A DNA stretch of 64,000 nucleotides from Candidatus Omnitrophota bacterium (GTDB taxonomy: Bacteria; Omnitrophota; Gorgyraeia; Gygaellales; Profunditerraquicolaceae), in contig JAQURX010000002.1 of the NCBI GenBank assembly GCA_028715415.1, positions 119,144-183,143 of the forward strand, given 5' to 3'. Shown here piece after piece: positions 15,001 to 36,000 of the stretch. Under the pieces are notes generated by a model. The model saw only the letters and a list, made by a program, of their open reading frames with translations, was not told where the DNA came from and made no database searches. The position numbers and the translations under genes were made by a program. Each line of letters opens with the position of its first letter. Positions within the stretch are counted from its first letter, which is position 1.

Positions 15001-18000
15001 ATCCCGATAGTGGCTTGGGACATAGTAGAAAGGTTCAAGCGTTGCGTGCTAAAGGCGAGATTAAAGCAGCCTTAAGAGCCGCAGTAAAGTTCGTAAATCT
15101 ATTTCCCAAAGATTCCATAGGCTGGAGCCAGTTGTGCGACGTGTATTATGATTTAGGTGATATGGAAGGCGCTTTAAGTTCTGCTTACGAAGCTATTAGT
15201 TTAGATCCGTCCAGCCCTTACGGTTATGGACAGTTATCAAAGGTGCTTCATTATTCTGGTTTAGAGTTTGAAGCAGCGATTGTTAGTGCTATTTCTAAGG
15301 CTTTGACTCCTGTGGGCCGGGGTTCTTTCGACAGCCGTTTTAATCTTATGTACATTTTAATTAAGGAATTAGATCTTAAGTGGTTAAACGGGAATATTGA
15401 TTTACAAGAGCGCAAATTTGTCCCGTTGTTTACCCCAACCGTTGAACAAAACGAAGCCATCAACATATTTAATCAGCTTATTGCAGAAGCAATTGAAATT
15501 ATCGGGAAAATGGGGGTAGTTTTAGAACCAGAATTAATCCGCACAAAGTTAAGGGTGGATACATCAAATGGTAAACTCGCTTGCGCAGCTGTAGAGGAGG
15601 CAATAGGAGTTACCAATGCAATTATTATATCTTGGGCGATGTTCGGCCGCGTGCCAAGATTAATCGCTTTGTATACTCTTGTAGAAGAAATATTGCATTA
15701 TAGTAAAAATAAGGATAAGGAAGTCCACGACCTTGTAGATGATTATATCGCAGAAAATATATATGATGATTTTCTGGCGGCTGTCAAAGAAGCTGCTGAT
15801 AATGGAATTGTTGCTTATGATCATTTTGTAGAGCGATATCTTTTAGAGGCACGGACTCGAGTTCTTGCGTTAGGGATTTTAAGAAATCTTCTTTTAAAAA
15901 GATATTCACAAGCATTTGAATCAACATCAAAGTTACTGGCTTATGCTACTTCTGATGAGGCACAGATAGTGTTAAGAGATGCGTCGGACATGTATCCCGA
16001 ACGATTAAATCAAATAGATAGAAGCCTTTTAACTGATACTGAATGGAGTTTTTGCAGAAATTTATCTTTAGGTAATTCTCTCAAGGCTCTATATGCAGCA
16101 GCAGAATTTATCAATAAAGAAAAAGAAAGCCCTGTTGGGCATTGGCTGCGCGCAATCGCTTTAGCCCTTCAAGGACGAACATTAGATGCGTTAGGAGAAG
16201 AAAAGAAAGCAAGAGAGTTTGATTTGCAGAACTCTTTTAGTTCTTCATTCTGCTTATCTCTGCCGGTTTTGGCGCTTTTTGGCATCAATGCTTCAGGTGC
16301 ATTTCCCGTAGCTGTAATTGCTATTCTTGCTATCTTTATTTTAATTCGTCAAGGTAGTTTCTCTTTTGCCCAATACGAAAGTCAATCCTTCCAGCCCAAT
16401 GCATGCGAAAGTAATGATCAGATAGAAGTAGCCTTTTTCAATAGGAAATATTTTACGCAGTGCGGTAAAAATATTTACGGCCTCCATATAGGAGATCAAA
16501 CATATCTTTTTGTGGTTCCTAATACGTTACCAGCCAGCCAAGATATGGCAAGTAGTATCACAAATTTGCGTTTAAGCGGCGGTAATGAAACACTGGATTT
16601 TGGTAACAGTAGTTTTGATATTGAAGATAAGAAATTCCAAAGGTATTTTAAATATCTTTTAAGATTTATGACTCAATTGAGTAGTAATGAATTGAATTAT
16701 AGTGATGGTAAAATTGCGATTAAACTGTCGATTAAGTATGGTTTAGAAAGAACTCAACTAAAAATTGATTTCCCGAAAACAGAATTTTCAACCGATATTA
16801 TAGATATCGAGCACAATAAAATGACTATAGATTTTCATAATTCGCCAAATTGGAGAGAAAAATCTTTAGCAGAAAGAAGTGTGTTATGTTTTATATACCT
16901 CCCGGCAATTATGCAGCGTGAAAATCTTAGACTTGGAGATATTGCATTGGAGCTTCTTTCAAATTTGCATTTGGAAATGCACCAGAAGAAAATAAGTAAT
17001 ATAGGCGTTAGGTGTGTAGATTTTCTTAAGTTTATGGCAGGCCAGCGCCGCGAAAAAGACTTAAGATTGTTATTGAGAAAATGGGAAGATGCAGATGAGG
17101 TATTAGCTGAAAGAATTGCGGCAAAGTTGAATGATGATTTACCGTATATAGATACGGGTCTTGTTAATTTAGTTTTACTAGGTAAAAATCCGGAAGCCAA
17201 TTTCCATAAAGCAATTGCTAGTATTTTTTCCGGTTTTGGTATTTCTTTGAAATTAGAAGAATTAGCTTTCTCGTCAAGAGCATTGCATATTGTTGAATTG
17301 GTGTCTAGAAAAATCGGTTTTAATTTAGGTCCGCAGTCTACTATAAAAGAAGAAAACAAATCAACTTTGTCTTGCCATGCTTGGTCAGTTTTAGCGCTTT
17401 TTGTCGGAAGTTATCAGCAAACATCCGTCATTGAGTTTCTCTGGGCAACCGGACCGCTGTGGGTGGTGGTTGCCTTAGCTGCAGTTTTATTCTTATCGAT
17501 GATGAATTTTTCTAAATTAAATCCTTGCCGCGTACCATCAACCCAAACAACTTTAAAACAGATACTTGATTCTAAGAAGATTGATATTAATTTCAAGAGA
17601 ACAATTCTTTATCCGGATATCCTTTTGCTTCTTTTGGGTGAAAGGCCGGGGTATATAAGATGCGAAGACAACGGTGACCCAGATATAAGCAAGATAGTAA
17701 GAAGTAAGATCGGAAATAAGTTAAGATTATTTAAAGCCGGAGATGTCACTATTTCTATCCCTCTTTTTGTTGCAAGGTTGAAGAAAGAAGGTTTATTCTT
17801 GGTAAAAAGCGGGATTATATCAGAAAGTGATTTACGTGCAATCGTTTCAAATTCAGCTTCAACTTGTAGTTTATTAACCGAACTTCTACTCAAATACAAA
17901 GAAAATGAATCTGATAGCGTTCAATTAGTAAAGTTGTGTGGTTTCATAAGCGGTTATCCTTTAAAAGATATAGAGTATGCGTTGTCAGGTAATAATCCGC

Positions 18001-21000
18001 TTAGAAAAGCATGGAGTTTATACGGCCTTAAGCGTTATTCAGACCAGGGGAGGAAAGAAGCTTTATTTAATCGCTGGGATAAGTCTTTAACTGATGCTTA
18101 TTCTTTATTGGCCAATGAATCATATTTTAATTCAGTAATGCCGGCTCGGGCTTTAGTTGCTTATTTGGGCCTTAAAGTTAAATCTGAGGAAAAATGGATT
18201 TATGTCGCAAATTGGTTTAAACGTTTAGCCGGATTTTTTAAGAATATGAAGTTAGCTGATTTTGAAAGAACCAAATATAGTTCAGATATAACGGATTCCC
18301 ATATTATTATCAATAAGCATAAGAGTTCAGGATGGTCTGCCGACCAATATGATGAGGAAAGAACAAGAGTCAGCGTAAGCGGTGGAGAAATAACGTTTGA
18401 TTACCGGTATACATCGAAAATCCATAGCGGCGGGCATGAAGATAGCTTTAAGGTTGTTTTTAAAGGGAATGTAACTGAGTGCGAAGCAAGCAGGGAATGG
18501 TCTCATTATACTGACCGTTTAACACGATATGGATTTGAATTTACATATAGAGGGCCGAGCCCGCTTGTTGATTTTGTAGGAGATTTAGATAATCTGCGCG
18601 CGGTTGTAACTCCTGATTTCTTAATCTGCTTAAGGTCAGCAATAGAACACTTTGATTATAAAAATAGAGGTTGTCGTTGCCAGGCTAAAATGCTCGAACC
18701 TGTAGAACTTAGCAATATATATTTACCTTTTGTCACAGAAACAGGTATTCAGAATAGCCCTGAGTGGAGAAGAAGGTTTTTATTTGAGCGCTTATCTTCG
18801 CATCCGCAAGAAAGCTATCCGTTTATTTTTAAAGATAGTGCAGCTGATTTCTCTAATTCTTTCTACAGTTTCTCCTTTTTGGCGATAGGGCTACCGTTAG
18901 TTTTTGATTTTCAAATAAGAGTGGTCCATATTATCCTAATTTTAGCTATTCTTATGTCTCTTTTTTATAAGTATGTTGTAAGGAAACATCTTTCTTTGAA
19001 CCAAAGTGGACATAAATCAAATTATTATAAGTATGCCATATTTATTATTGTAGCGTTATTGTCTATAGCCGCCGAACTTTTTTCAAACTATACAAAACGC
19101 ATTTATGACAAATTCACGGTAGTTGTAGTTAATGCTAATAATGTAAAACCATCCGAAGCCGCCACTACTCCAACTGAAACAAAGAGAAAAAATATTCTGG
19201 CGATTGTTGATAAGCGTCTTTCGGAAATGCCCGAATCTGAATTCAAAGAACACGCTAGGAGATTCAGAAGGGCACTTCTGTGCGCATCCTCTTTTGAAGA
19301 AGGGGCTTTTATTACTTCTACTATTATGGATGTTAAGAAGCACAAGGTCGGCCTTTCTATAAATTATCAGGTTTTTGTTGAATCCAAGGCGTTAGCGCAA
19401 AAACTATTTATGGTGGTTGAAGGCCGGCAGCTTTTGAATATTGCCTGTGTTGAGCAACTCATAAATATATCCAATGAGATTCCTGTAGTTCTTGATAAAC
19501 ATAATATTCCCCGCCATGATACTGATGCTATCGTACGTTTTGCTTTGCAAAATTCTGAATTTACAGATTTACTGCGAAGGGTTGCTAATTTAATTGTTGA
19601 TGGAACGTATTTTGGGTACAGGGAGGCCATGGAATTCTTGGTTGCAGAAACAAAAAGAATGAATAATGGTAAATTCAGCCTTTCGGAATATGAAACAATG
19701 GTGAAGCAGTATATTAATTCAGGATCCGAAATGTTTATGTTTGTCTGTGAGGATGGAAGCATTGATACCGGCGCATTAAGGAGCCATTTATTTATAAACC
19801 CGGCCAGTCAAAATTTATTATCAGAATTGATTCTGTTTATTGAAATGAAACGAGTGGGCAGCGATAGCAATGCTTTGACGTCTCCCGAATTTAGTAGCCT
19901 GTTATTCTGGCTTGATTACCCTAAATATTTTTGTGATTATTCTAAGGTAAAGATAGATCATCGTTGGAAGGATAATTCTGACTTGAAAAGAATATACGGG
20001 GAGCAAGGTGATTGGTTTAAAGATTATTCGCCTCTATTTAAGCATAATTCTGATGTTCCTTTGCATTGTTTTGCGTCTGTTCCGCTATTGGCGCTTCTTG
20101 GTCCCTGGTCCATCGGACCGCTGTGGATTGCGTTAGGTATTTTTGCTTTGATATTTGTTCTGCAGTTTACACAGACAAATTCCACTTTTCCTTGTAATCC
20201 TATCGTAAAAACTATTATTGCTGCCACTAGAATACATGCCCGGCAGTCTGAAAGCCTTGCCGTGATTTCTACCTTAATTAAGGAAAGAATAGGGATTAGT
20301 TTTAATATTAAAAGTAATAAATATAACCGTGCTACAGATCCTGTTTCTGCAATTGAATTATTAAAGCTAGCCATAAATCCAGGTGATTCAATCGAAATAT
20401 CTGTCCAAGGAGATTGTTCTATAGAATTATTGAATAAGGTTTTAGATATATTCATCAGAGCCTTTCAGGATCATAATCTTGATGCATTCGGATCATATGA
20501 TCATAGGGGTGATGTATTGCGTTTATCAATAGATAATAGCAGAAATGGGGGAGGTTCTATTCTATCCTGCCACGCTTGGCCTGTCTTAGCACTCTTAAGC
20601 TTTAACTCGCTATGGCTGGCGGTTGCCTTATTTGCATTCTTAGGTGTTTTCTATCTTGAGAAGGCGATTAAGAACCCCAATTTATCAGCTGCTATGTTTA
20701 CACCAACCCGCGGATATGGCAAGCGTAAATTCTGGTTTTTAGATAAATTTAGGTCATATATACATGAATCATGGCACATTATAGCGTATATTATTTTACA
20801 TCCTTTTTCTTCGCTTCTTGGGAAAGACAGGATTACTCTTGAGTTATTAAAGGCTACTTATGGAAGTAATCGTTTTGATCCTCCGAAATCTGAAGAAGGA
20901 TTGTTTGGTGCAATAGGTTGTCTGGCGGCTCCGTTTGGAAATGCCGCTTTTCAGGCATTGCTGACTTATGCTGCTATAGGGCTTTTTTCTGACGCATCCG

Positions 21001-24000
21001 GCATAATAGACTATGTTAAGGGGGCTTTTGTTCTTTCTATTGCTGCGATTGTTGCCCTTGATAATTTTGGCTATCTTTTTATAAATTTTGTCGCGAAAGA
21101 ACCGTCCGCTGATTGGAATAAAGCTTTCTGGATGCTGACCAAAGGGAACCGAGGGCTTAGCGTAATTATAACGTCCGCAATTTCCATTTGGCTTGCGCAT
21201 ATTGGTTTTACGCAGATTCCTTTATTGTTGAACGGAGTAACTTCTTTATCAGTAGTTTTCTATTCCATTATTGTGCTGACATTTTTGCCTTGGACAATAA
21301 TAGATACTTTAATTGTCATGAAATCCGGCAGGCTAGAATCCTCGCTCTTTCCTTTTCGCTTCTGGAATAGATTTGATTCCTCTCATCAATTGGGAAAGGA
21401 TATATTATCCGGTAAAGTGCCTCCAAATATTTATGATCATCCTAATGATACCCAGATGCTTTGGCTGGGTAATGCCGAAGCGGTTTTTGCTTCTTTGAAA
21501 TATCCTCAAAAAACAGAAGAATTATTATCAAAAGTTGTTTCTGAGGCGTTGGCGAGAGGTAAGAAAAGCATTGGTTTTAAGTTAACCATGACTGTAGCTA
21601 TAGAAGAATTCTTAAAAGCTTTCTGTGAAAAAATGTACCTCGGTTTTAAAAAAGAGGAGCAAGCCGGTGGAGAAATAACCTTAACGCTTATACAGAAGCC
21701 GAGAGAAGATGTCTTAAGTATTAAAGGGCACATAGTAAAACCTAATTATAAAATAAAGGTTCTTGGCTCAAATATTATAGTTTGTTTTGCAGAGAGGCAT
21801 TTAAGCAATATTACGAAAAAGCTTTGTTGGAAGTGCAAGTTTCATATTGATACTATCCCCGGGGTTATCGCGGTTAGAGGAAAGATCGATGATGATAGAG
21901 TGTCATATTGTCCTATAGAAAAGCACGACCCTATAATCCTATTTACTGATACTCCTAAAACTAGTACATTCTTGGTCCGAAAAGTTTCTGAAGAAACAAG
22001 GGAACTTGAGGCAAAACTTACCTTTACTGTTCTTTCCGTAAAAGAAAATGGCGAGATAGAATTGGATATTAAATCTTCTGTAGAGACGAGGATAAATATT
22101 TTCTTTAAGAAAAGTAAGGTAGATTCTTTTGTTGTCGGGCCGGAAGATGATCCAGCCCGAACAGTTCCACCTTTAAAGAATCGTCAGGCAAGAGAGGAAT
22201 TAAGGGCAATTAGGAATAGGTATGCTGGAGAAATTTCAGCTTTTGCTGTAACTAATAAATATGACCCATTCCGCAGTATGGGTTGTGGTATTCTTAAAAT
22301 GCTTAAAGAGAAGAAGGTCGCCAATATTCTTAAGGGAGCAGTTATTGCGCGCGCTCCTCCTGAATCAGCTTTAGTAAGTGAAATTAATGAGTTTGAAAAA
22401 AAATATCAAGTTAAAGTCCGCGCTTTAAATCTTGCCCCAAATATTATCGCAATGCTTGCTCCGAACCCTAATCTACAAGATTTAGTCCATGAAGCATCTT
22501 CTTTATCCGGCACAAATGATTTTGTCAGCGAGTCATTAGCTAAAAAATGCGCTTATTATAGGCATGCTCTTCCAAAAATAATCGGCAAGCCCGAGAAAAC
22601 TAAAAAAGAATTTATTGAAAAAGTTAGAAAAGAGTTGCTGAAAAATCCTGTCATCGATATTAGCCAGATAAATATATTAATGCCTAAGATAGAATTCTTG
22701 GCTGAACTTTCCGCTAATACAGAGTTTACAGGCAGAAGTGAACAAAGAGTAGTTGTTGAGCATATACTTGGCAGGTTGAGGGATTTAATTTCTCCATGCA
22801 TTATCGGAGCATCACAATCTGAGAGATTAAGGGAAATAGGCCAGCAGATAAGATGCAGCCAGATTTTGCTTGAAAATATGTGGTTAAAGCGTAAGTTTGA
22901 AGCAATTGCATACAACCGTATGGGTTGGATATGGGGAGTTGCCTTCCAGCGCGAATTTGCTTATCTTTCAGAATATATATTAGCCTTAAGGGTTTTTGGT
23001 TATCCTCAGTCAGCTGTTTCTTGCACAATAGAGAGCATGGATTATTGCCTTGCCCGCCTATTTACAGCGATAGAGCATTTTATCCCTATGTCTTCTTACG
23101 ATGACGATGAATTGCGCAGAAAAGTATTCTCTCGCCTTATGGCTGATCTGGTTGAAGATAAAATATATAGCTTAAGATGCCTTTCCGTTAAAGATAGAAA
23201 CAAAAATCGATGTATTAAAGTTTTGAATGAAATTGATTTTGAGCAAATAAAGCAAGTTATCAAGAATGTAAAAAGAAATGAAATGCTTCGTGAAAAAGAG
23301 TCAGAAAGAAAGTTGGCAGGAGAATCATCTTCAGGATTCTCAGGTGGTGGGTTAGGTCCGTCATTAAGGCTATATCCTCTTCAATCACAGGTTCATTCAT
23401 TAGAACAGCGGTTAGCATTACTTCAGAAGACAGCCGCTATTAAAGATGAACCGATCGATGAAGTCCCGGAAGAGTTTAAGGTTGAGCTATCTACTTTTAG
23501 CATTGATTCTTTTTCTTTGAAGAGTACGATTGTAAGTTTGCAAAATCCGCGGACCTACCGATCTCCAAATGGCAATGTTTTCGTGGATTATTCCGGGAAT
23601 ACCATATTAATCCAAGTAGAAGGGCCTGATGCTGAGCGGGTAAGAGGCGATTTAGATATTTTTAAGATAATCGTTGAGCTGGATAAAAATGGTGGTTATA
23701 AGAAAATATCTACATTTCCCGGATTATCCGGACTAAACTTTAGAACCATTGCAATTATTCTGCAGGATTCAGAATTTAATCAAAGTATTACAAACTTACC
23801 ACCGAGATTAAAAGAATATTTTGTTTTACCAGAAGTAGATGATGCTTTACGCAGACAAGAAGCTTTAGCTACTAAGGAAATACCTTTATTTGAATATCAG
23901 CAGCAGATAAACGCTTTAAAAATAGATGAAGACCTATTGGCTGCGCTTGAGGATTTAAAATTCGCAGACTCTCAGACGATCAGGCGCAAGGCAGTTGTTT

Positions 24001-27000
24001 ACCTTGGGCATCTTGTGAATGAACAAAAACTAAGCGTGAGGAGATTCAATTCATTACAGGCAGAATTCTTCCGTCAGGATGTCCTTGAAGACTTATCTTT
24101 AATCCAGAGGGCATTTCATTCTGATATGGATTTTGTCAGTGGTATATTCCGCAATATCTTCGGCAGGGAAATTGCACCTCAGGAATACGATTATTCAACA
24201 ATAAATATCAGGTATTTTGCCCGCGGCGCAAATAAATTAATTTATCTTGTGAATTGGAAGTTTTACGGTGGAGTTGAGATGCCCGCGTTTACAATTTCTA
24301 CTTTACGCGAATCCCAGCTTGGTATCGGCGATTTTGATGAAGAGAAAATTCAGACAGCAGTAAATTATTGGGAAGAAGCATCTTTCTCCGGTTCATCTGG
24401 AATAGCAAAATTTGGCGCTTTACACAGAGTTGTAGACACAAGAGGCCAGAGTGTTGTTATGGACGCACATGGAGGAAAAGAATGGTGCACTGTTTATAAT
24501 AATGTTTTCTTATTGGCAAAGCAGTTTATCCCGGGGATGCCTTTACATAAGGCATTAACCTCCAGCTATTCAAGAAAGAATAGCGCGTTATCGGCTGCTC
24601 AAAAAGGTTATTTTGATGTTTGGGAGAGAACAAAAGGCGCAGAAGGCACGGGCGTTTTCTTGAGAAATCCTCGAGCAGCTGACATTGTGGTTTCAAATGA
24701 AGATGAAGAGACAATCCAGGCAACGATTATCGATCCCGATACTCTTGATAGAGGTGGCCGGGAAACTCTTAAATCAAACTTCCAGAGGCTTGAGGGTTGT
24801 CCAGCCAGATTTACGAGCCTTCTTAGGCAAAGCTGTATTATTGCACCATTGGGTTTTATTGATTTTTCGGGTCTTACGCAATTTTCATTATCAAGTGTTG
24901 AGCTAACAGTATTGTTGGTTGTATTTAGTATCTTCGCACTTTTGTTTATTCAATCTTTTAGTCAAAATAAAGCAACGATTTTCCCTTCTAATCAGACCAA
25001 TTTAATACTTGATATTGGAGGCGCTTGGCCTACTGCTATCAAGTTAACTCTTCAGCATCTTCATCCCAATGATTTAGTTGTTATCTTGGATATCGATCCA
25101 GACAAGATTGAATTGGCTAAACAGTCTGTTGTGCAGGCAGGGAAATTAAATCAATTTATATTCATTGAAGGCGATGTAAGGGCTCTGCCTATTGAAGTTC
25201 AAAAGTATAGGTTTAATGAAATACATGCCTACAACATTTTAAAGAAGGCTCTTACTGATTTTGATAACGGTAAGATGGAATTAGTTATACGAAGCCTGGT
25301 TCCATTGTTACAAGATGGCGGAAAATTCTATCTTGCGGGTGTTGAGGGGCAGTGCGAGCTGGGTTTATTTAGTAAAGTATTTAGTGAAGAAGGTTTTGTT
25401 TTGTCTAGAGAAGAAAAGGGCGAAAAGGCAATGGGGCATTTTGTTTCTTATGATAAGGAAAATCATTGTTTTTGTATATGGGAGAAGCTTAAGCGAGAAA
25501 ATTGCGATGTAATTATTGTTGGTTCTGGGCCTGCAGGGCTTTCCGCAGGGTTATATCTTTCCAGAGAAGGATATAAAGTTGTAATCCTTGAGAAATCATT
25601 TATCGGGGGGAATCTTATCCTTGCCGCAAATATTGAAAATTATCCGGGATTCTTGAATGTAATTGGATTTGAATTAGCGGAGAACATGAGGAAGCAGGCA
25701 GAATTAGCGGGTGTCAAGTTTGATATTAAAGAAGTAAAAGACGTTGTGATTAATGCTCATAATCAAGAAAAACTGATAAGAACAGAAAATCTGGTATATG
25801 CTGCTAAGGCTGTAGTTATTGCGACAGGCACAAGCTACAAGAAATTAGGATTGGAAAAAGAAAATGAATTTACAGGAGCAGGGATTTCTTACTGTGCTGT
25901 TTGCGATGGGCCTTTCTTCAAGGGTAAGAAAGTAGTAGTAATAGGTGGAGGCAATACTGGCGTAGAAGATGCCTTGCATTTAGCAAAAATAGCTTCTCAG
26001 GTGACGCTAATTGTGAATAAAGATTATCTTAGCGCAGATAATGTATTAATAAAACGTATCCAAGCCCTTCCGGAAATAATTATTAAATATGGCAATAAAG
26101 TAATAGAGTTAAAGGGCGACATTAAGGTAAGCGGAGTAGTGATTGAGAATATTAAAACCGGCCTTAAGGAAACAATTGATGCAGAAGGTGTTTTTGTGGC
26201 AATTGGCGTTAAGCCGAATACAGATTTTATACAAGGATTGGTTAATTTAGATGGCAAAGGTTCTGTTATTGCAGATAAAGGCTATAGGACCTCTCAAGAT
26301 GGTATTTTTGCTGTTGGCAGCGTAAGAAGTGGTAGTTATAACCAAATAATTTCTTCTGCAGGAGAGGGAGCAGCTGTTACAAAGTTTGTTACTGAATATC
26401 TAACCTCTTTGAGTAATTATCCTGCAATACTTTTTGGGAAGTGCGCAGCTCCTACACCGAAGCAAATAGATAATTTTCAAAAGTATATTAGTAAAGCAGA
26501 AGACGAATTGTATGAAGATTTCCAAGATAAAATAGTATTGGTAGATAGAACTAAAACAGGCAAGGTTGCGGATTTAACAACAGTTTCGGGGAAAATCGCA
26601 ATCCTAAAGAATTTAGCTGCAAGGGCTCCTCCGTTTGAAGAAGCTAAGAATTCTTCGTATTTCCAATTCCTTCTTAATAAGATTCTGCTCCATGAGCTAT
26701 CCGAAATAAGCAATCATTCCCATACAACAGCCTGCCAGGAAGATTTCCAGCGGTTTGATGAAGTAATAACTGATTTGGTTTCATTGATTTTTTCTTTTAA
26801 GGAATTCGGGCTTTATCCCGATCATGATTATCTCTTAGGCCTTAATAAACTGCATAATGGCATAGCTGGAGATTTGATTAAGATTGGTAATTTCCAGCGT
26901 AGAGATTTTTCATTTGAAAGGTTAGTTTTCAAAGTCATCGGGTTACTTTCTTACGAAGGGCCAAAGGCGGATTTAATCCATAAGGCAGTGTTTAACGGTT

Positions 27001-30000
27001 TAAGAGGTATGGCTGAGGGTGTAGATTTAGGAGAAGATGGCACAGGCAAGGTATTGGGCCTTGCTGGCGAGATATCCGGTTTATTTGAAGTAGTAATTAA
27101 AAGAGGAAGCACTTTAGAGAAAATAGCTTTAGGAGAACTAGAACAGATAAATAGGATAGTTTCTGATAAAACCGGAGTTGTTAAAGAATTTGACGCAGTT
27201 TCAAACAATACAGTTTATGAATTTAAATTTCATCTTTCTCTACGCAAGCTTTATCAACAGGTAATTGGAATTGATTCATGGCGGACACCTCATCTTGAAG
27301 TGCTTACGGATGTTAGGGAATTCAGTGGGGTACGAAATCTGGTTTATTTTGGAGAAACAGACGGCGGCAATGTTATTAAGGCTTTAAAAGAATTTATCCG
27401 AAACAATCCTGAAGTTTTACCACAATTTAATCTTACCGAAACTGGAATTTCAGTTAAATTAAATCTTGAACAGGTAAAAGAATTTCTTTTTTCCGATTCT
27501 ATAATCATGTTAGCAGGGGAAGAAGAATACCAGGGAAGATTTGCAGGATCTTTTGTTGATTATAAACGCCATCATGAATATACAGAAAAGCTTATTAGCA
27601 GAAAAATTAAGCAACTAAGAGGAGAAAAGTTTGACGTTATTATCGCAGTAGGCAATGTTAAACCGAAAGATTTAGAGCAGATTAAGGAAATGTCCAGAAC
27701 TAGACAACAAGAAGCTAAGCCAATAGATTCAAATGTGCTCATTAATAATTCTTATATAGCTATTCCAGTCGATACTCTGGCTAGTCCTTGTGGAGTTAAT
27801 GGCCCTATTTCTAATACAGAGTTCTCTGCGAATCTTCTATTCCAAGAAGTATATGGAGGTTCTTGCTATGAAAGCTCGCTTTGCTATAGCCAGACTCCTA
27901 TTGACCCTCAAATTATTACAGAAAACGCACAATTTATGTCAGATGCTAAGCTGACTTTTGAAGAAAAAGTAGATAAATTATTCGATCTTTTATGTACTGC
28001 ATTTATTCGGCCCGAATATGAGGCAGTTAAGCCTTTGCATCCGGGCTTGTGTTTCCGGTTAGCTGGATTTGTAGCTATATATTTTGCTGCAGCCGGCTAT
28101 TATGCATACAGGGTTAAGCAGAATGGACAAAACTTTGCAATTGTCTATGATATTGTTTCAAAGCGATATCATCTTATTGATTTTTCTGCAGCCCAATTTG
28201 TTTTAGGAGATGCCTTTGGGCATAATTATGGAGATAAATATAGGGCTTCTTATTTAGAATTAGCTACTGCCAATCCTTTTGTAGCCAATCGTCTCGGAAA
28301 ATATGCAAAAAATGGAAAGAGCAACTCTGTTTTATCCTGCTGCGCTCCTTTGGCTATGGCTTTTAGCAGCAACTTTGGTTTAACTAAAACAGTATTAGAA
28401 GCTGTAGGAATATTAGTTGCGGGGTTCATAGTATTATTTATTCTTTTCTACATATTCGCAGATAGTTCCATGAAAGAAGATCAAGCAGCAGGGAAGGGAA
28501 AACACCCGGATACTTATGAAAGAATTATTAATGTCTTAGATGGAATTGTTAATGCGATTCCCCGGGTTATTCAAGGTAAGGAAGGTATATCATTTTCTGA
28601 AACCTTAAAAGAAAAAGTTTGCATTGTCATTACACAAGAGAGAAATATGGCAAGCATTTTGGCAGCACGCAAAAAAATATGGCTTAAAGTGAATCCCGAA
28701 TTTGCCAGATATTTAAATAATAGCGCGCTTGCTTTTATGCTGGGACATGAGATGGCCGAAGCATGTGACTTGAATAGCACTTCGCGATATTTTCTCGATG
28801 TCGCAAGATCATTCTTGTGGCGTATTGCCAACTTGCTTATATTGTTTTCTCCTTTTGGTTTAATATTTATAGTTATTTCTCCCGGCTATTCTTCTGAGTT
28901 CTTTGCTATTTTGGTATTTAGTATAATACTCCGTCAAGCAATTAAATACTCCATGTATAAAAAAGAATTCAAGGCGGATAGTTTGGGGTATCTTTTCATG
29001 AAAAATGCCGGTTTTGATGCAAACGGAGCAAGAGATTTCTTTGAGGTTTATTCCAAATGTAAAATCAAATGGAATATTTATTCAATATTAGGCCTATTGC
29101 TCTTTTGGCATCATCCAACGATTAAAGCAAGGATCAAAAGCTTAGAAAGAAAACAAAAAATAGGCAGCTTAGTATTGCCGTCTTTGTTGTTTGTCTGCGC
29201 TCTTGGCTTGCTTTTCCTCAGCGGCTGCGGTACATCTCCGCATCATACAGCCTATACCATTCAAATTAATTCAATTATTGCTGGCCTTGGTTTATCGCAG
29301 TTAGGGTTTACTTCGCCATTTACGCATGTAGTTAATTTAGTCGGAATTGGATTATTATTGTCCGTATTTGCTTTTATGGTTTCGTCTAATTTACTTAGCA
29401 CTAGGGAGAGGAGTTTGGGAAGCGTAATTAACAGAGCTTTAAAGATAGGATTGCCTACAGATAGGGAAATTAGTGTTTTAGAGAGGCAACAAGAAGCCTC
29501 GATGCCGACATTGGATGATCTGTTGAGTGCTAAAGTAAGTAATCCGGTTGAAAGAACAGCATGGAAGAGAGCCTGTAATAAATTTATTGATGAAATGAAG
29601 CCTAGCAAAAAGAACAAGAGAGAATTTCGCGAGATCGTTGACGACTTTCCTTTTTATAAAAAACAGCTGTTATCGAGGCAAGTATTTATCAATAGATACC
29701 TTTCTTTGTTGATAAATGAAGCGAATGACTTAAAGTCGCTAAAGATAGCTTTTAGTCTTGTGGAGAATTATATGAGAAGTTTTAATGATTCAAATTATCT
29801 TAATTGTATGTTTGCTCATCAAGAATCTTGTAGCTTCATATTAGTTTTTCAGAGATTGGTTAATGCGGCTAAGAGTGCCGAGCAATTGAAAGTCTGGGCT
29901 TCTCTTGTTAATTATTTTATGAAGAAAATCTGCCGTTCGGAACATTTTGTTTTAAGCCTTTCAGTTTTAGCCAGGAAACTGAGAGATAAAGATATCAAAT

Positions 30001-33000
30001 TGCTTAGAGCTTACGCAGATCTAATTATGAGATACCTTAGGGAGAGCGATGATCCTATAAATAGTGTTCAGAGCCTTTTGGAGTTTCCCGAAGCTGTGCT
30101 TGATTTGGCAGTGTTAAATGCAGAGGTATTTTATGCGCCTGCAGAATTATGTTATCGCAGATACGATGAATTTACCGGTAGATATGTAAATGTTTTTGAT
30201 AAAGATGATTTTGAAAAAGAAGTAAAGTCAGGACGGGTAATAGATATAGGAGGGAAGTACTATTTTCCAATTAAAAATCCCTTCATTCCTTATGACAATG
30301 TTCATAATCGTGCCTTGCTTTATAATTCTCGAGGAGTGGACATCGTATACAAAGGAGCAGGTGCATCAGCAAGAATTGTAAAGCACGGATTAATTCTTAA
30401 CTTTAGCCATGACAAGAGCCCGCATATATTATATGGTGGGCTTCCTTCGTCCGAGGCAACCATAGATGTTGATGTTTCATTTAGAAAGGCTTACCAACAG
30501 CTTAAGGCTGAAGAAGACCCGGGGTTACTGCTTGCTGAAAGAAATGGCGCTCGTATCGATATGTATAGAAAACCGATAGCTATGGCAAGGCTTGAAGCAT
30601 TTCCTGTGGTTGTGCCGAATGGTAGCGTTAACGAAAAACAAGCCAAAGAATTATTAAAACATGCGGTTAATAAACCTGATTCACTTGGCCTACCGGAAAC
30701 TGTGAAGCTCATATTGGCGCAGCACTTCCTTAATTTTATAGGAATCCCTAAAGACAGCAAAGAAGAAAGGGATCCTACAGAATATATTTATAGTGTTCCG
30801 GTAAACCGGAGATATCAGGAAATGGATTCTCTGAAAGCTTACGGTCCGGTTTTTGAGTATTATGGTTATAAAGTTAAGTTTGATCGCAAGAAAGGAAGAA
30901 TCTATGCCAAGAACAAGCAAGGCAAGACTGTTGATTTCTCTTCGGTCAGGCGGCAAGTCGTAATTTCTGCTGCTGTCAGGTATGCCTTATTTTTGCGTAT
31001 TTTGCATAAGAAGTTTAATGGCTGCGGGTTTAATAAATATGGTTCGGTTTTTAGTGAGCATAACTGCAATCCTATCACAATATTTGATTATGATGTTATT
31101 AGATATAACGAATTAACCAAAGAAACCCGCGAAGGTGATTTAGGACAAGCAGAGGAGGCGTTGGCTAGGCTACATCTATTATATACAAGCGCTTTTCTTG
31201 GAGAAAAACGTGGTGATGATGAAGATGAATTATATGAGGATAAGTGGGCGAGCAAAAGAATTTTTGATGGAATATATAACGCTCCAATGGATAAAGGGAC
31301 CGTTTCTCAAGCTGAAGCTAAAAGTGCCCCCCTTACAGATAGGAGGAACACTTCTCCGAACGGCCCAAGAACCGGTCTCCGAACAGCTCAAGAACCGGTT
31401 TCTAAGGTTGTGGCTTTATTGCTTATGCTCGGGCTTTGCCTTGCGCAGTTAGGATTTACTTCGCCATTTACGCATATTCTTAATGTAACCGGTGTTGGCC
31501 TTATTATTCTTGGGCTAATTCTTGTTTTTTCCGGGCAATCTTTTGCGCAAAGCAATAGCAGTGCCTCATCCAATAGACGCCTTTTACAAGTCAGGAAGAT
31601 TGCAAATGTACTTAAAGATTTGAGATATCCGAAAGAAGGCATTAAAGATATTCTTCGTAAAATCACTCCTCTGGTTTCAGAAGTTAATCAGGCGAGGATT
31701 AATCTTAGTTGTGAAGATGATGGCCAACTTAAATCTGAGCTTAAGCGTTTGGTCGAGATTCTTAGATCCAATACCCATACAAGTTGGCTGCAATTAAACT
31801 TAATAAATGACTTAGTTGGTTTTGATATTTTTAAGGAGATAGATGGCTCAGTAGAGAAAGGTAATTCCGAAGAAGCAATGCGTAGAAAAGCGACTATGTT
31901 GGGGTGCGTGCCTCTTTCTCAGTTAATGTATGTAATTTTAAAATCATGCGGCTTGGAAGTATATGGAGCCATGACAATGAAACATGCATTTGCTTTAGTG
32001 CTTTTGGAAGATGGAGAAAAAGGCCTAGCAATTGACCTTCTTTTTGGCGTAGTAAGGAAAATTAATTTAAGTAAATATTATAACTACAATAAGGATACCA
32101 GAAGTTATATCCTTAAGCCTAAATTTGTGATGGCGGAAGAGGAAATTGAGGAGTTTAGAAAGAGTTTGGGGGAGGGTGAAATTAATCCTGAGAAATTATC
32201 TTCCTCTGAAAAAATAGGCTTTTTAAATTTAGTATGCCCATATTTCCAATTAACGAATTCTACCGGTTTATCTGCCGCTATTTATACTAACTCTGGGAAT
32301 GTTACTATAAAGTATGGCCTTGAGAAAGTCCCCTTTCAATCAGGTGGTTATTCCAGAGGGCAAGAATGTTTTTGTTTTTATGAACTGGCAAAGAACCTTG
32401 ATTTAATAAACGCTTTTAATAATTACAATCGTGGGCTTGCGGCTATGCATTTTGAAGATATGGAAGTCGCCCTTGATGCTTTTCAGCTTGTAATAGATGC
32501 TTTTCCTTGTTTTGAACCTGCTGTCGAAGCCTTTGAAAGAGTAGAAGAAAAACTTCAAGTAGAAGAAAATCTTCGTAATGGCGGAGATTTCTTTTCAGCG
32601 ATGGATTTTAATTCTTTTTGGGGGAATAGCTGTATTATTTCCCCGTATTTAATTTTATCTTCTTTAGGATTCAGATGTGGGATTGGTTCGCAGCAAACAG
32701 GCATTATCGAATCTCTCTGGTCAACGGGTCCGCTGTGGATGGTTGCACTAATGGTATTTTCTTTTGTTACATATCTATTCTTTGCAGGATCTTCGGGTGC
32801 ATTAACGAGGAACAATGCTCGTTCAAACGAAGAATCATTTGGCGTCATATTGGGATACGACTATGAGCGGTCAGTTATAAAGCCGTTATCACGCCAGTTG
32901 CAACAGCTTGCCCAAAATAAACTTAAACCTGTATTGACTATTAATGAAAAAGGATTAGCCGTAGCTGATTGGGTAAGCGATAAATTTAGAGAATACATTG

Positions 33001-36000
33001 TTTCCCGCAGCCATTCCATTCTTGCTCTATATAATGAGCTTATGCAGGCATTAAAGGAGAAAGGTTTTGCTCCGGCAACGGTTATAGTTCATTCTTCTTA
33101 TATCGTAGCAACAGAGGCTGAAACTTTTCTCGAACCAGAGTTAACCCTAGATACTTATGCTTGGGATAAACACGATAAAATTTATAATCTTTTACCTGAA
33201 CTCGCAGGGGGAGAAGAAATAGTTAGTTTTAGGGATTCAGAAGGCAGCCTTCATTTGCCTTTTGGGTATTTTATGCCCGATACAGGTTTTGCATTAACTA
33301 AATTAATGATGGCTGAGGCGAGTTTGGGCGCTTTAGCCAAGGACACAGCAGAATTAGAAGCATGCGCTCTTAATCATACTTACGAGGAGCTTTTTAATGG
33401 AAAAGATTTTACTTTTAAGCGTGATGATATTGGAGGAGATATTGACAAAAGCAGGATTTTGCCATTTTTAGCTTTAAAATATCATTTTGAAATCTTTTTG
33501 CGCAAAGTCTATGAGATCAGGAAATATCTTGAAGAAGGAGATCTTACAAACTTAACTATACTAAAAGAAGAAATGATTCAATTTATGGCTACGACAATTG
33601 GCGATTGTGGTTTGGATGAGAAGCAAATAGCTGAAAATTGGATAATAGATAAAGAAGTGACAGATGCAGTGCATAATTTTATTATTTCAGCCCGCGTAAA
33701 GAATGCAGGTGAACTTAAGCTTTCGGTAATTAACTCTGCTTTGCTTAACTTCTTTGCGTTTTTGTCTTTAAATGAATCCCCGCGAATTCCCGAGAATATT
33801 TCAGCCACAGATTTTAGTAAAACAACCGAGTTAGCAGCCCTAAAAAGCCATATTTTACAACGACAGGTAACAAAAGAACAACTCTTAAGGGAGCTTTTTA
33901 AGAGGAAGGTGGTTTATATTCTTGATGAAAAAAGGATGCGAGGCATCGCGGAGTTGTTAGGGGAGGTCCCTAATAATACCATGGTAGTTTTTCATGGTTT
34001 TTACTATGCGCTTAATTGCGGTTCTGGTATTGATGAGGAAAAAGTTAATCAGTCATTAAATGACTATCTTCAGAATGGGGATAATAAGTGCTTGGACGTT
34101 CCTTCATCTTTACAATGGGATGAAATTGCATGTGCAGCTTCAAGTTCTCTTAAAAAGGCTTTTGATTATTTGCATCAGCGCAATAGACGAGGCGCTAATA
34201 TAACTTATCATACTGATTTATCCGATTATTTATTCCAGACTATTAATAGTGTTACAGTTCCTTTTGGGGATAGGATAAGTAATTTTACAAATATTTTAGC
34301 TCAAAGTGCTCAGACAAGAAAAGCAGAGCATATATTAATACTCGGCAGCCGAAGGATGTTCCCGATGGACGAAGATTTCTTGAAACCGAGCAGGAACAAG
34401 CAAGGGCCGGTTGTTGAAAGATTAATTGAGGTTTTTGGAAGAGATAATGTAGCTTTAGCCTTAAATCTAATTTGTGTTGATTCAGAAGAAAACATTATTT
34501 CCCGTGCAATTTGGGGGAGTAGTTTAACTTCTTTTGCTTTAAGAGGGCCTTTGCCAGAAACTATACTTCCTGCGCCTATTTGGGATAAGGTTGGAGAAAA
34601 ATATATTTTTGGTAATTTCCCACAAGGTATTTTTGTCACTGCAGTTAAATCTGATGATGGCGATGATCGCAAGCCCGAGCCTGTAGCTCCAGATCCCGAG
34701 CCTGTAGGCGAGGATGCTCCTGTTGGGGATCTAGTTTTGGCGTGCCACACCTTGCCGGTAGTATTGTTATTAGGTTTATTAGGCCTTGGCGGATGCGGGG
34801 TCGTCTCTCATCATGCGTCCTACGTCCTTCAACAGGATTTAACTGTTGAATCCTGTTGGGCGACGGGGACGTTGTGGGTTGTTTTTGTCATGCTTTTTGC
34901 TGTGTCGATGATGTTTGCAGTGCCGGGAAATAATGGCCAATTAGGCAGAGTAAGTGGTAGTTTAAGTCTAGCCCATGCTTTAAGGTGCTCGTCAAGTTTA
35001 TATAGGTATAATGTGTCGGCAGGGGATATACCAGCTCAAGCTAAAGATAAAAGGCTATATTGGGAAAGAAAGATACAAGAGGCCCGAGACAGAAGTGATA
35101 GAAGTGGTTGGCAAGCGCTCACCACATTAAGCAGGTTAAATCATATGGAGTTATGGGCAAATTTAATAATAGATAGGGAGACCACCAGAGGATTATTGAT
35201 CTTCGGAGAAAGCACAAGTGGTAAATCAACAATTACTTCTTTGATGCTGGGTCTTAATCCAAAAAGTAAAGACGTTGGTTTAAGCAATCGTTGGATTCTG
35301 GGAGTAGATGATTTAGCTCAAGGATTCTTTGTAAAAGATAATTTGATAGCCGGGATGAAGCCTTCTTGTGATGGTAGGAATAGATGCAATTTAGAGGTGC
35401 CAGTAGAAGCAAAGCCTCTTTTTGTAGTTGTTGGCATGGTTGTGTTTTTAAATTTAAGATTCGTTCAAAAAGAGCCCATACTAAAAACAAGATTGACACA
35501 TATCCTTAGGGAAATGCACGAATCAAGTTATTTTGCTTTGACAGAAGATTTTTATAGAACACTCCCAATATTGCCTTTATTTGAGGCCCGGGTTTTAGAT
35601 AATTGTGGGCGTAGATGTGATTATCCATCTTTGGCTAAAACAATCGAAAAGACTTGGTTACAAGTTCCCGCAGTGGGGAATGCGACATCGAAAAGGTTAG
35701 CTTTGCTTAATTCTGATGCAGGGAGAAATCACTGGAACGCAACATTTTATTCCGTATTACCCATTATTTTATTCCCGCTAAGCCATTTGCAGATCCAAGA
35801 GCTAATTGAATCCCTCTGGTCAACCGGACCGCTGTGGGTGGTGGTAATATTATTGATTTGCACATTATTCTTCGCAAGCCCAAGCAGTAACAGTTTCCCC
35901 TTTAAGTCCGAAACAGTTTCTAAGAGGAAATTCTATGTAATATTAGAAGAGCATAATAGTATTCGCCTGCCTCCGGAATTAGCAAATAAAATCCTTCTTC

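Follow-up and report, generated by a model that had tools for sequence, protein, structure and literature searches.

A stretch of 64,000 nucleotides (nt) from a Candidatus Omnitrophota genome (contig JAQURX010000002.1, positions 119,144 to 183,143 of the forward strand), referred to here as the window, was found to lie within a single giant open reading frame (ORF) that carries, in frame, a full-length module of the low-molecular-mass (low-Mr) thioredoxin reductase (TrxR) family. Translation of the window showed that frame 3 of the + strand is free of stops from nt 3 to nt 63998, giving 21,332 codons with 0 stops, with each of the other five frames containing 691-2286 stops. This length (>21,000 amino acids, aa) is a lower bound for the giant ORF, both ends of which lie beyond the window, and it was missing from the program-made list of ORFs because it extends past both window ends. 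The GC content of the window is approximately 0.38 throughout and its GC skew is positive over the whole length. Residues are numbered in the frame of the window, such that aa i begins at nt 3+3(i-1), and the coordinates of the features discussed are given in Table 1.

The giant ORF was found to encode a mosaic of at least 12 different domain families (Pfam and NCBIfam tiles), including two receiver domains, signal peptidase II, a partial alpha-glucan phosphorylase, TPR repeats, a methyltransferase-like and TrxR pair, an M48 peptidase, a complete GT4 glycosyltransferase (E 2.6e-46), an alpha-amylase, an array of Cro/C1 helix-turn-helix (HTH) domains, Methyltransf_23 and an alpha/beta hydrolase. 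Giant proteins of Candidatus Omnitrophota have been described previously, with those of the class 'multi-enzyme metabolic cluster' possessing methyltransferases, GT1, receivers, radical S-adenosylmethionine (SAM) domains, signal peptidase II and many transmembrane (TM) helices (West-Roberts et al. 2023, bioRxiv 10.1101/2023.11.21.568195; Nielsen and Lui 2026, bioRxiv 10.64898/2026.06.07.730766). The ORF examined here was found to be longer than 10,000 aa, to carry many TM helices and heterogeneous Pfam tiles, and to be homologous to Omnitrophota giant ORFs through a region named domain X (described below). The features that it shares with these proteins thus comprise size, many TM helices, methyltransferase, GT1/GT4, receiver, signal peptidase II, peptidase and TPR tiles, and domain X. 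On this content the host ORF is assigned to the known Omnitrophota giant mosaic class, of the 'multi-enzyme metabolic cluster' type. The available portions of the text and supplement of the two papers name no thioredoxin reductase or Pyr_redox, with one of them naming only 'oxidoreductase content' and an F420-oxidoreductase. As Omnitrophota giant mosaic proteins tile many enzymes that are normally free-standing, a further tile of this sort is less unexpected here than it would be if viewed by itself.

The TrxR module was found within a tile of approximately 1,150 aa that is delimited by two TM-like helices, in the order TM helix, methyltransferase-like stretch, TrxR, a 154-aa segment, domain X, approximately 230 aa of further sequence and TM helix.

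Table 1. Features of the window discussed in the text, with nucleotide positions and, in brackets, residues of the giant ORF
Feature	Position in window (aa)	Strand	Basis or remark
Giant ORF	3..63998	+	At least 21,332 codons, no stop, mosaic of domains, 46-58 TM-like helices
Signal peptidase II domain	~942-1328	+	Pfam tiles
TM-like helix opening the tile	24894..24950 (8298-8316)	+	SVELTVLLVVFSIFALLFI, Kyte-Doolittle 2.59
Divergent class I SAM-methyltransferase-like Rossmann stretch	24951..25493 (8317-8497)	+	Sub-threshold hidden Markov model (HMM) matches, motif I ILDIGGAWP
Low-Mr thioredoxin reductase-family module, full-length	25497..26411 (8499-8803)	+	TIGR01292, Pyr_redox_2, PDB, panel alignment
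FAD-binding GxGxxG (GSGPAG)	25521..25538 (8507-8512)	+	Glycines 99% conserved in panel
Redox-active CAVC and Asp (CAVCD)	25893..25907 (8631-8635)	+	C8631, C8634 and D8635 columns 99-100% conserved in panel
Second dinucleotide GxGxxG (GGGNTG), NAD(P)H domain	25944..25961 (8648-8653)	+	Terminal Gly for usual Ala, as in 5/111 of panel
VNKDYLS at the HRRxxxR position	26013..26033 (8671-8677)	+	NADPH 2'-phosphate arginines absent
G-S at the 'GD' position, C-terminal FAD-binding segment (FAVGSV)	26316..26321 (8772-8773)	+	Ser codon AGC
Segment without annotation, 154 aa	26412..26873 (8804-8957)	+	Homologs at 34-42% in the long protein P0122 and three Omnitrophota giant ORFs
Domain X, ~270 aa	26874..27692 (8958-9230)	+	No Pfam or PDB match
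Next TM-like helix, closing the ~1,150-aa tile	28401..28457 (9467-9485)	+	Follows domain X and ~230 aa

Identity and borders of the thioredoxin reductase module

Comparison of the module to the NCBIfam model TIGR01292 ('thioredoxin-disulfide reductase') gave a match over model positions 2-300 of 300 (E 6.6e-96, 320.6 bits), and Pfam Pyr_redox_2 was matched over positions 2-290 of 291 (E 1.7e-42). A phmmer search of the PDB identified 52 TrxR or AhpF chains at E<=1e-20, the best being 4ZN0 (E 3.4e-65, positions 6-306 of the module aligning to 8-308), and the module was found to be 45-50% identical, end to end and with few gaps, to the solved TrxRs 4ZN0, 5UWY and 2Q7V. Matches of this strength lie far outside what chance would give, and at this level of identity to solved structures the predicted TrxR fold of the module is beyond doubt. 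A first-pass annotation of the window had proposed that a full-length TrxR-type flavoenzyme of the length of a TrxB monomer (given as about 300 aa) sits in frame within a giant polypeptide (>21,000 aa), with both GxGxxG motifs and the CAVCD disulfide present, and had named failure to match pyridine-nucleotide disulfide oxidoreductase models as grounds for rejection. This proposal is borne out by the model matches above, by the stop-free frame, by a measured module length of approximately 305 aa and by the presence of GSGPAG, CAVCD and GGGNTG in the translation.

Other identities and origins for the module were considered and ruled out. An independent TrxR gene was discounted, there being no ATG at the module start, no stop behind the module and no rival ORF longer than 85 aa on either strand, with the nearest in-frame ATG situated 22 codons upstream of the module, inside the methyltransferase-like domain. 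Recent horizontal insertion of the module was discounted on the basis of a codon usage typical of the giant ORF (z = -0.9). AhpF, which carries an N-terminal tandem thioredoxin-fold domain with a CxxC of its own, was rejected as no thioredoxin-fold Pfam match was found upstream and as the AhpF-type NCBIfam models score 241-264 bits (E 1e-71), which is far under their own cutoffs and below the 321 bits of the TrxR model. The ferredoxin-dependent TrxRs (FFTRs) are recognized by the absence of both GxGxxA and HRRxxxR and by clustering with one another (PMC10880999). This identity was also dismissed for the module, since its GxGxxG is kept and the FFTR structures 6GNA-6GND match it far more weakly (E 1e-27 to 1e-30) than do canonical NADPH-dependent TrxRs (1e-65).

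Cofactor-binding and catalytic residues

Conservation was assessed against a panel of 111 free-standing proteins of TrxR size, one per 50%-identity cluster, with the sequence of E. coli TrxB being used for residue naming only. The module matches at 37 of the 41 columns conserved at >=90% in this panel, the members of which themselves deviate at 1.5 +/- 1.4 of these columns (maximum 7). Residues N8546 and Q8781, also conserved in the panel, are kept. In three of the four deviating columns the substitution is one that genuine TrxRs also show (A to G8653, A to S8785, A to V8792), the fourth being Ser8773 at the 'GD' position, which is considered below.

The HRRxxxR arginine cluster, the position of which is taken by VNKDYLS in the module, coordinates the phosphates of NADPH, and TrxRs that do not possess it have been described to draw on NADH (Thermoplasma), F420 (M. 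jannaschii) or ferredoxin (FFTR) (PMC6262447; PMC10880999). An Arg-Arg pair occurs at these positions in 79 of the 111 panel members, with 15 of the 111 having no arginine at any of the three; the arginine-free state, judged from the panel, is a minority but known one among TrxRs. Our reading of these residues is that the active site of the module appears to be under selection, that its NADPH specificity is doubtful and that its flavin binding is possibly altered. On the favoured reading the module is a genuine two-domain low-Mr TrxR-family flavoprotein, maintained by selection and carried as one cargo tile of a mosaic giant that is anchored in the membrane by multiple passes.

Comparison to known TrxR systems revealed both shared and differing features. 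With the canonical low-Mr NADPH-dependent TrxRs (E. coli TrxB; 4ZN0 of Methanosarcina mazei; 2Q7V of Deinococcus) the module shares a length of approximately 305 aa, FAD and NAD(P)H domains at 45-50% identity, two GxGxxG motifs, a CxxC-Asp within the NAD(P)H domain and the 37 of 41 conserved columns. It differs from them in being embedded at both ends in a polypeptide of >21,000 aa, in having VNKDYLS for HRRxxxR and in having GS for GD. The absence of the HRRxxxR cluster is shared with the TrxRs that do not use NADPH, namely the NADH-dependent enzyme of Thermoplasma acidophilum (3CTY), to which the module gave a strong match (E 4.4e-55), the F420-dependent enzyme of M. jannaschii and the FFTRs (6GNA-6GND). 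The last of these are clostridial and cyanobacterial ferredoxin-dependent enzymes, and are also without GxGxxA/G (PMC10880999), a motif that is intact in the module as GxGxxG. All of these non-NADPH TrxRs are free homodimers, whereas the module is tethered.

Covalent joining of a TrxR to another domain is a feature of natural fusions (AhpF, plant and cyanobacterial NTRC, and glutaredoxin-TrxR of approximately 400 aa). Among the nearest relatives of the module, glutaredoxin-, thioredoxin-, CoA-binding- and HAD-TrxR fusions were identified, all tethered at one end only, and glutaredoxin-TrxR fusions were the top matches of a word-indexed search (42-43% identity). As such fusions exist, tethering is evidently tolerated by TrxR. 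In AhpF, NTRC and glutaredoxin-TrxR the fused partner is a redox domain of thioredoxin fold located at one terminus, unlike the neighbours of the module, which are a degenerate methyltransferase-like domain and sequence without annotation, neither with a thioredoxin fold. The contrast that had been drawn initially between this tethered module and the free homodimer of TrxB is lessened by the TrxR fusions already known among its closest relatives.

Proposed function and its alternatives

The module probably acts, although with considerable room for doubt, as a membrane-tethered, cytoplasm-facing disulfide reductase that draws on NADH or another non-NADPH donor, with its substrate being either a thioredoxin-like protein in free form or portions of the giant that lie beyond the window. 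The FAD domain of low-Mr TrxRs contains both chain termini, with the NAD(P)H/CxxC domain inserted into it (as in the structures of E. coli TrxR), so that in-line tethering need not block the domain rotation of catalysis. The NAD(P)H/CxxC domain would remain free to rotate, with flavin reduction alternating with exposure of the dithiol. As the module has none of the 2'-phosphate arginines, its electrons would come not from NADPH but from another donor, for which NADH is the simplest candidate given that the second GxGxxG is kept, and would then pass through FAD and Cys8631/Cys8634 to the disulfide substrate. The TrxR dimer would be formed between two copies of the membrane-anchored giant.

Several observations weigh against this proposal. 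The TIGR01292 score is 23 bits short of the equivalog cutoff of the model (343.45 bits), meaning that by the NCBIfam rule the module is classed as a family-level TrxR and not as an assured functional equivalog. In this superfamily of flavoproteins the ribityl chain of FAD is hydrogen-bonded by the 'GD' aspartate. This residue is Ser8773 in the module, at a position where the panel holds 108 Asp, 2 Glu, 1 Gln and 0 Ser and where Asp is found in 120 of 120 first-round homologs, and FAD binding could be weakened by the change of GD to GS. A single-base error does not explain this serine, because its codon AGC is two substitutions from GAY. Dimerisation within a polypeptide of >21,000 aa is an assumption. 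No Pfam match to a thioredoxin, glutaredoxin, peroxiredoxin or methionine sulfoxide reductase was found in any tile or offset tile of the 21,332 aa, of which the TrxR is the sole redox module found, and an internal-repeat search of the window identified no second copy of the TrxR or its cassette and no thioredoxin-like CxxC. With respect to the membrane side, the positive-inside votes at the two helices flanking the tile conflict, and the literature is undecided regarding the enzyme content of the giants; no nicotinamide donor would be at hand if the tile were on the outer face. Finally, no relative with the TrxR cassette was identified, hence there is no cross-species conservation to draw on. 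Assignment of the membrane side by the positive-inside rule was dropped as unreliable owing to the contradictory votes.

As it scores under the equivalog cutoff and carries neither HRRxxxR nor GD, the module should not be annotated as an NADPH-dependent TrxB. The use of that name in the first-pass annotation was an overreach in this sense, given the loss of the 2'-phosphate arginines and the serine at GD, and the comparison of FAD- and NADPH-binding residues recommended there gave a divided outcome: the GxGxxG motifs and the CxxC-Asp are kept, while HRRxxxR has become VNKDYLS and GD has become GS, two changes that had not been remarked on there.

A module that has kept the TrxR fold but lost turnover, serving as a structural or binding spacer like its degenerate methyltransferase-like neighbour, is regarded as rather unlikely. 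The serine at GD, without precedent in the 111 and 120 relatives examined, would be in keeping with such a loss, as would the missing NADPH arginines, the TIGR01292 score under the equivalog cutoff, the degenerate SAM loop of the adjacent domain, a window without a redox partner and a cassette that is not conserved in relatives. However, the two glycine motifs, the catalytic Cys8631 and Cys8634 and the acid-base residue Asp8635 have all been kept, and only 4 of the 41 highly conserved columns are changed, three of them as in bona fide TrxRs. An active-site pattern of this kind at approximately 45% identity to any relative would be unexpected without selection, and serine should still be able to donate a hydrogen bond to the ribityl chain. 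Small TrxR-like dithiol oxidases are known from natural-product pathways (GliT, DepH and HlmI), and by analogy to these, together with the lost NADPH motif, the module could be a nicotinamide-independent flavoenzyme that forms or exchanges disulfides on the outer face, with the cysteines of the giant itself or envelope proteins of prey or host as targets. This is considered quite improbable, even though a TM helix directly precedes the tile, the largest Omnitrophota giant has its multi-enzyme content assigned to the periplasmic/extracellular face in a published topology survey, and the same literature ties the giants to secretion machinery and attack on cell envelopes. The second dinucleotide GxGxxG is fully kept, the module matches canonical NAD(P)H TrxRs (E 1e-65) far better than it does TrxR-like proteins that are ferredoxin-dependent or otherwise divergent (E 1e-30 or weaker), and the receiver, HTH and GT4 domains of the same ORF need cytoplasmic substrates. 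An O2-dependent oxidase is also unlikely because Omnitrophota, according to a published genome survey, have no aerobic terminal oxidases and live in anoxic groundwater.

The difficulty of dimerisation would be absent if the giant were a polyprotein cut at internal signal-peptide-like or linker sites, releasing the TrxR tile, either free or anchored by a lipid, at the size of an ordinary protein and able to dimerise in the normal way. Four internal segments resembling lipoprotein signal peptides were identified (window ~29139-29228, ~36558-36647, ~54093-54158 and ~63471-63533, with lipobox Cys at aa 9742, 12215, 18052 and 21177), each with a K/R-rich n-region, a hydrophobic core and L-x-[GAS]-C (for example MMAGKLIKMFLRTSCLIVFALFALLYLGGC and LLKKIRWLMIGVVIFITILSGC). 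The reversed sequence yielded 0 such segments and local shuffles 0.54 +/- 0.73 (maximum 5). These segments may mark internal processing or anchoring sites, or may be left over from lipoprotein genes that were fused. The presence of four full segments against none in the mirror-image control, with signal peptidase II and M48 peptidase domains in the same ORF, argues for processing, but this explanation is given little credence here: no lipobox segment borders the TrxR tile, the nearest being approximately 940 aa downstream of the module, the junction of about 6 residues between the methyltransferase-like stretch and TrxR has no cleavage-like feature, the count is small with shuffles reaching 5, the motifs are possibly mere relics, and West-Roberts et al. 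2023 and Nielsen and Lui 2026 give no experimental evidence of processing. A similarly low probability is attached to a composite in which the giant ORF is modular, with recurrent domain X following interchangeable captured enzymes (in this case the methyltransferase-like and TrxR pair), and would be processed at the internal lipoprotein-type signal peptides by its own signal peptidase II and M48 peptidase, leaving the TrxR tile as a disulfide reductase of normal protein size that is tethered to the membrane and independent of NADPH. If true, such a modular, self-processed giant ORF would be an operon written as one protein. That the TrxR is instead a separate gene, fused only by an assembly or sequencing error, is extremely improbable in view of a frame that is stop-free over 21,332 codons when each of the others has 691-2286 stops, the lack of a start at the module N-terminus (nearest in-frame ATG 22 codons upstream) or of a stop after it, the uniform codon usage and the like giant open frames found around domain X in 41 independent Omnitrophota assemblies. 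In favour of such an artefact is the absence of the source sequence from the collections searched (5.8 billion proteins, GTDB species representatives, JGI metagenomes and IMG/VR), which leaves no independent copy for comparison.

Under the favoured reading of a tethered, non-NADPH disulfide reductase, thioredoxin reductase, a core redox housekeeping enzyme, is added to the free-standing proteins that have been absorbed by Omnitrophota giant genes. The cofactor pattern (glycine loop kept, NADPH arginines lost, GD to GS) predicts the use of NADH or another donor and an altered flavin affinity. The 305-aa module also offers an excisable handle on whether the enzyme tiles of the giants are catalytically alive, a catalytic test of such tiles not being reported in West-Roberts et al. 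2023 or Nielsen and Lui 2026. Its activity and location would help to settle the membrane side of the giants' enzymes, because a nicotinamide-dependent flavoenzyme works only in the cytoplasm. The presence of a TrxR module in the giant is a good test handle and not a new principle. Domain X is perhaps more useful than the TrxR for understanding how giant genes are built, as it marks giant ORFs in 41 Omnitrophota genomes with differing cargo upstream.

Domain X and the remainder of the giant open reading frame

Domain X starts approximately 150 aa downstream of the TrxR and is characterized by the signature motifs LGLAGEISGLYE, KEFDA..FEFKFHLTLRKLYQQVIG, IRNxVYFGE and GEKFDVIIAVSN, with no conserved Cys. 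An exhaustive HMMER search using the whole tile between the TM helices identified approximately 20 long proteins (1.9-8 thousand aa) that match aa 8958-9230 only, at approximately 50% identity, and free-standing relatives of the domain were found as hypothetical proteins of approximately 340 aa (~40% identity); the protein entries concerned are P0121-P0171. A profile of domain X searched against species-representative genomes returned 41 loci (L002-L042), nearly all titled Candidatus Omnitrophota, at 38-57% identity. In all 41 the domain lies inside a very long open frame, which usually spans the whole retrieved locus (up to 6,950 codons), and it sometimes occurs twice in one Omnitrophota giant ORF. 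An AlphaFold2 model of domain X was obtained with a predicted local distance difference test (pLDDT) score of 77.6, for which a Foldseek search of the PDB gave no match at E<=0.001.

The cassette containing the TrxR was not found to be shared with these relatives. Searches with tblastn using the TrxR, the methyltransferase-like stretch, the flank preceding the TM helix, the stretch following domain X and the M48 tile identified none of them within 10 kb on either side of domain X in the 41 loci. In ten relatives, the 1,000 aa upstream of domain X were found to hold either nothing that could be recognised or an enzyme that differed from case to case, such as a sugar transferase with a YrbL-like domain, a receiver with HPr, HD with HTH, GNAT, and RpiB with ribulose-phosphate epimerase and ATP-grasp. 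No protein joining parts of the TrxR cassette was identified in either large protein collection, and scans of genomes, metagenomes and viral contigs showed no cassette relative. The word-indexed search of 5.8 billion proteins with a 700-aa query gave nothing above 43% identity and no giant match, and the methyltransferase-like part was never covered. The TrxR is thus read as one-off private cargo captured in this gene. Two further candidates from these searches were set aside, namely locus L001, in which a weak TrxR-like fragment (30%) was judged irrelevant, and P0126 (1,427 aa), which has two TrxR modules and is an unrelated ankyrin/PH-domain protein.

A free-standing domain X gene (P0295; L043 3321-7071) was observed directly downstream of an alpha-glucan phosphorylase gene (DUF3417 and Phosphorylase) and near an NTP_transferase gene. 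Phosphorylase, GT4 and alpha-amylase tiles likewise occur in the window's giant ORF, and domain X may be linked to glucan metabolism.

The stretch preceding the TrxR can reasonably be described as a methyltransferase-like fold, its matches lying under the thresholds of the SAM-methyltransferase models. With the isolated stretch (nt 24951-25487, 179 aa) the best Pfam match was Methyltransf_31 (E 4.5e-5, 23.6 bits, under the cutoff of 27), and all six weak Pfam matches were to class I SAM-methyltransferase families, in register and under their curated cutoffs. Marginal matches were also obtained to PDB 3DLC (E 0.055) and 3MGG and to the NCBIfam models UbiE (E 0.0035) and OlsG. On direct reading the order of motifs (ILDIG, VVILDID, IEGDV, LLQDGGKFYL) fits the class I fold, which is Rossmann-like with seven strands. 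The glycine loop of motif I, which is (D/E)xGxGxG in the consensus, reads LDIGGAWP (aa 8336-8343), with the second and third Gly replaced by Ala and Pro and a Trp between them. AlphaFold2 run on the stretch without an alignment gave a pLDDT of 36.5, and no homolog of the stretch or its upstream flank was found among the 5.8 billion proteins. The initial description of a Rossmann methyltransferase module placed directly before the TrxR therefore stands as regards adjacency, with a linker of approximately 6 residues (...HCFCIWEKLKRENCDVIIVGSGPAG...), and the class I matches, and is weakened by their sub-threshold scores and the degenerate glycine loop.

The 154-aa segment between the TrxR and domain X is a reusable unit in its own right, with its homologs located at L006 3911-4312, L016 13846-14259, L037 12689-13117 and P0122 603-715, not collinear with domain X. 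Searches of the flanks at nt 21303-24950 and 26403-28400 against solved structures and NCBIfam gave no match. Outside domain X and those enzyme domains that could be recognised, no homolog was detectable for most of the giant ORF, the 367 aa upstream of the TrxR included, and scans of the window for Rfam families and tRNAs identified neither.

At least five Cro/C1-type HTH_3 domains were found in tandem at window ~47310-49400 (aa 15770-16464; HTH_3 E 1.7e-44, four stretches in one tile), with internal repeats of 25-32% identity. A string of repressor-type DNA-binding domains is odd content for a membrane-anchored polypeptide. A segment of approximately 450 aa was found to be duplicated at 37-47% identity (window ~55746-57212 and ~61365-62630; aa 18582-19070 and 20455-20876). 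Both copies possess CxxxCxxC (ATWGCSTQCDHC, ATWGCSEQCDHC) followed by RCWxCxxxC, which has the look of radical SAM, but no match to Pfam Radical_SAM was obtained at E<=0.001.

Two sequence motifs were found to recur at or beside TM helices. LW(A/S)TGPLW(V/M)V occurs at least three times (window ~17439, ~32703 and ~35814; aa 5813, 10901 and 11938), and GLxLxQLGFTSPFTH(I/V)xNxxG(I/V)GL occurs twice (window ~29295 and ~31443; aa 9765 and 10481), with 64% identity over 22 aa. The recurrence of these motifs suggests a membrane-anchor cassette that is reused between tiles.

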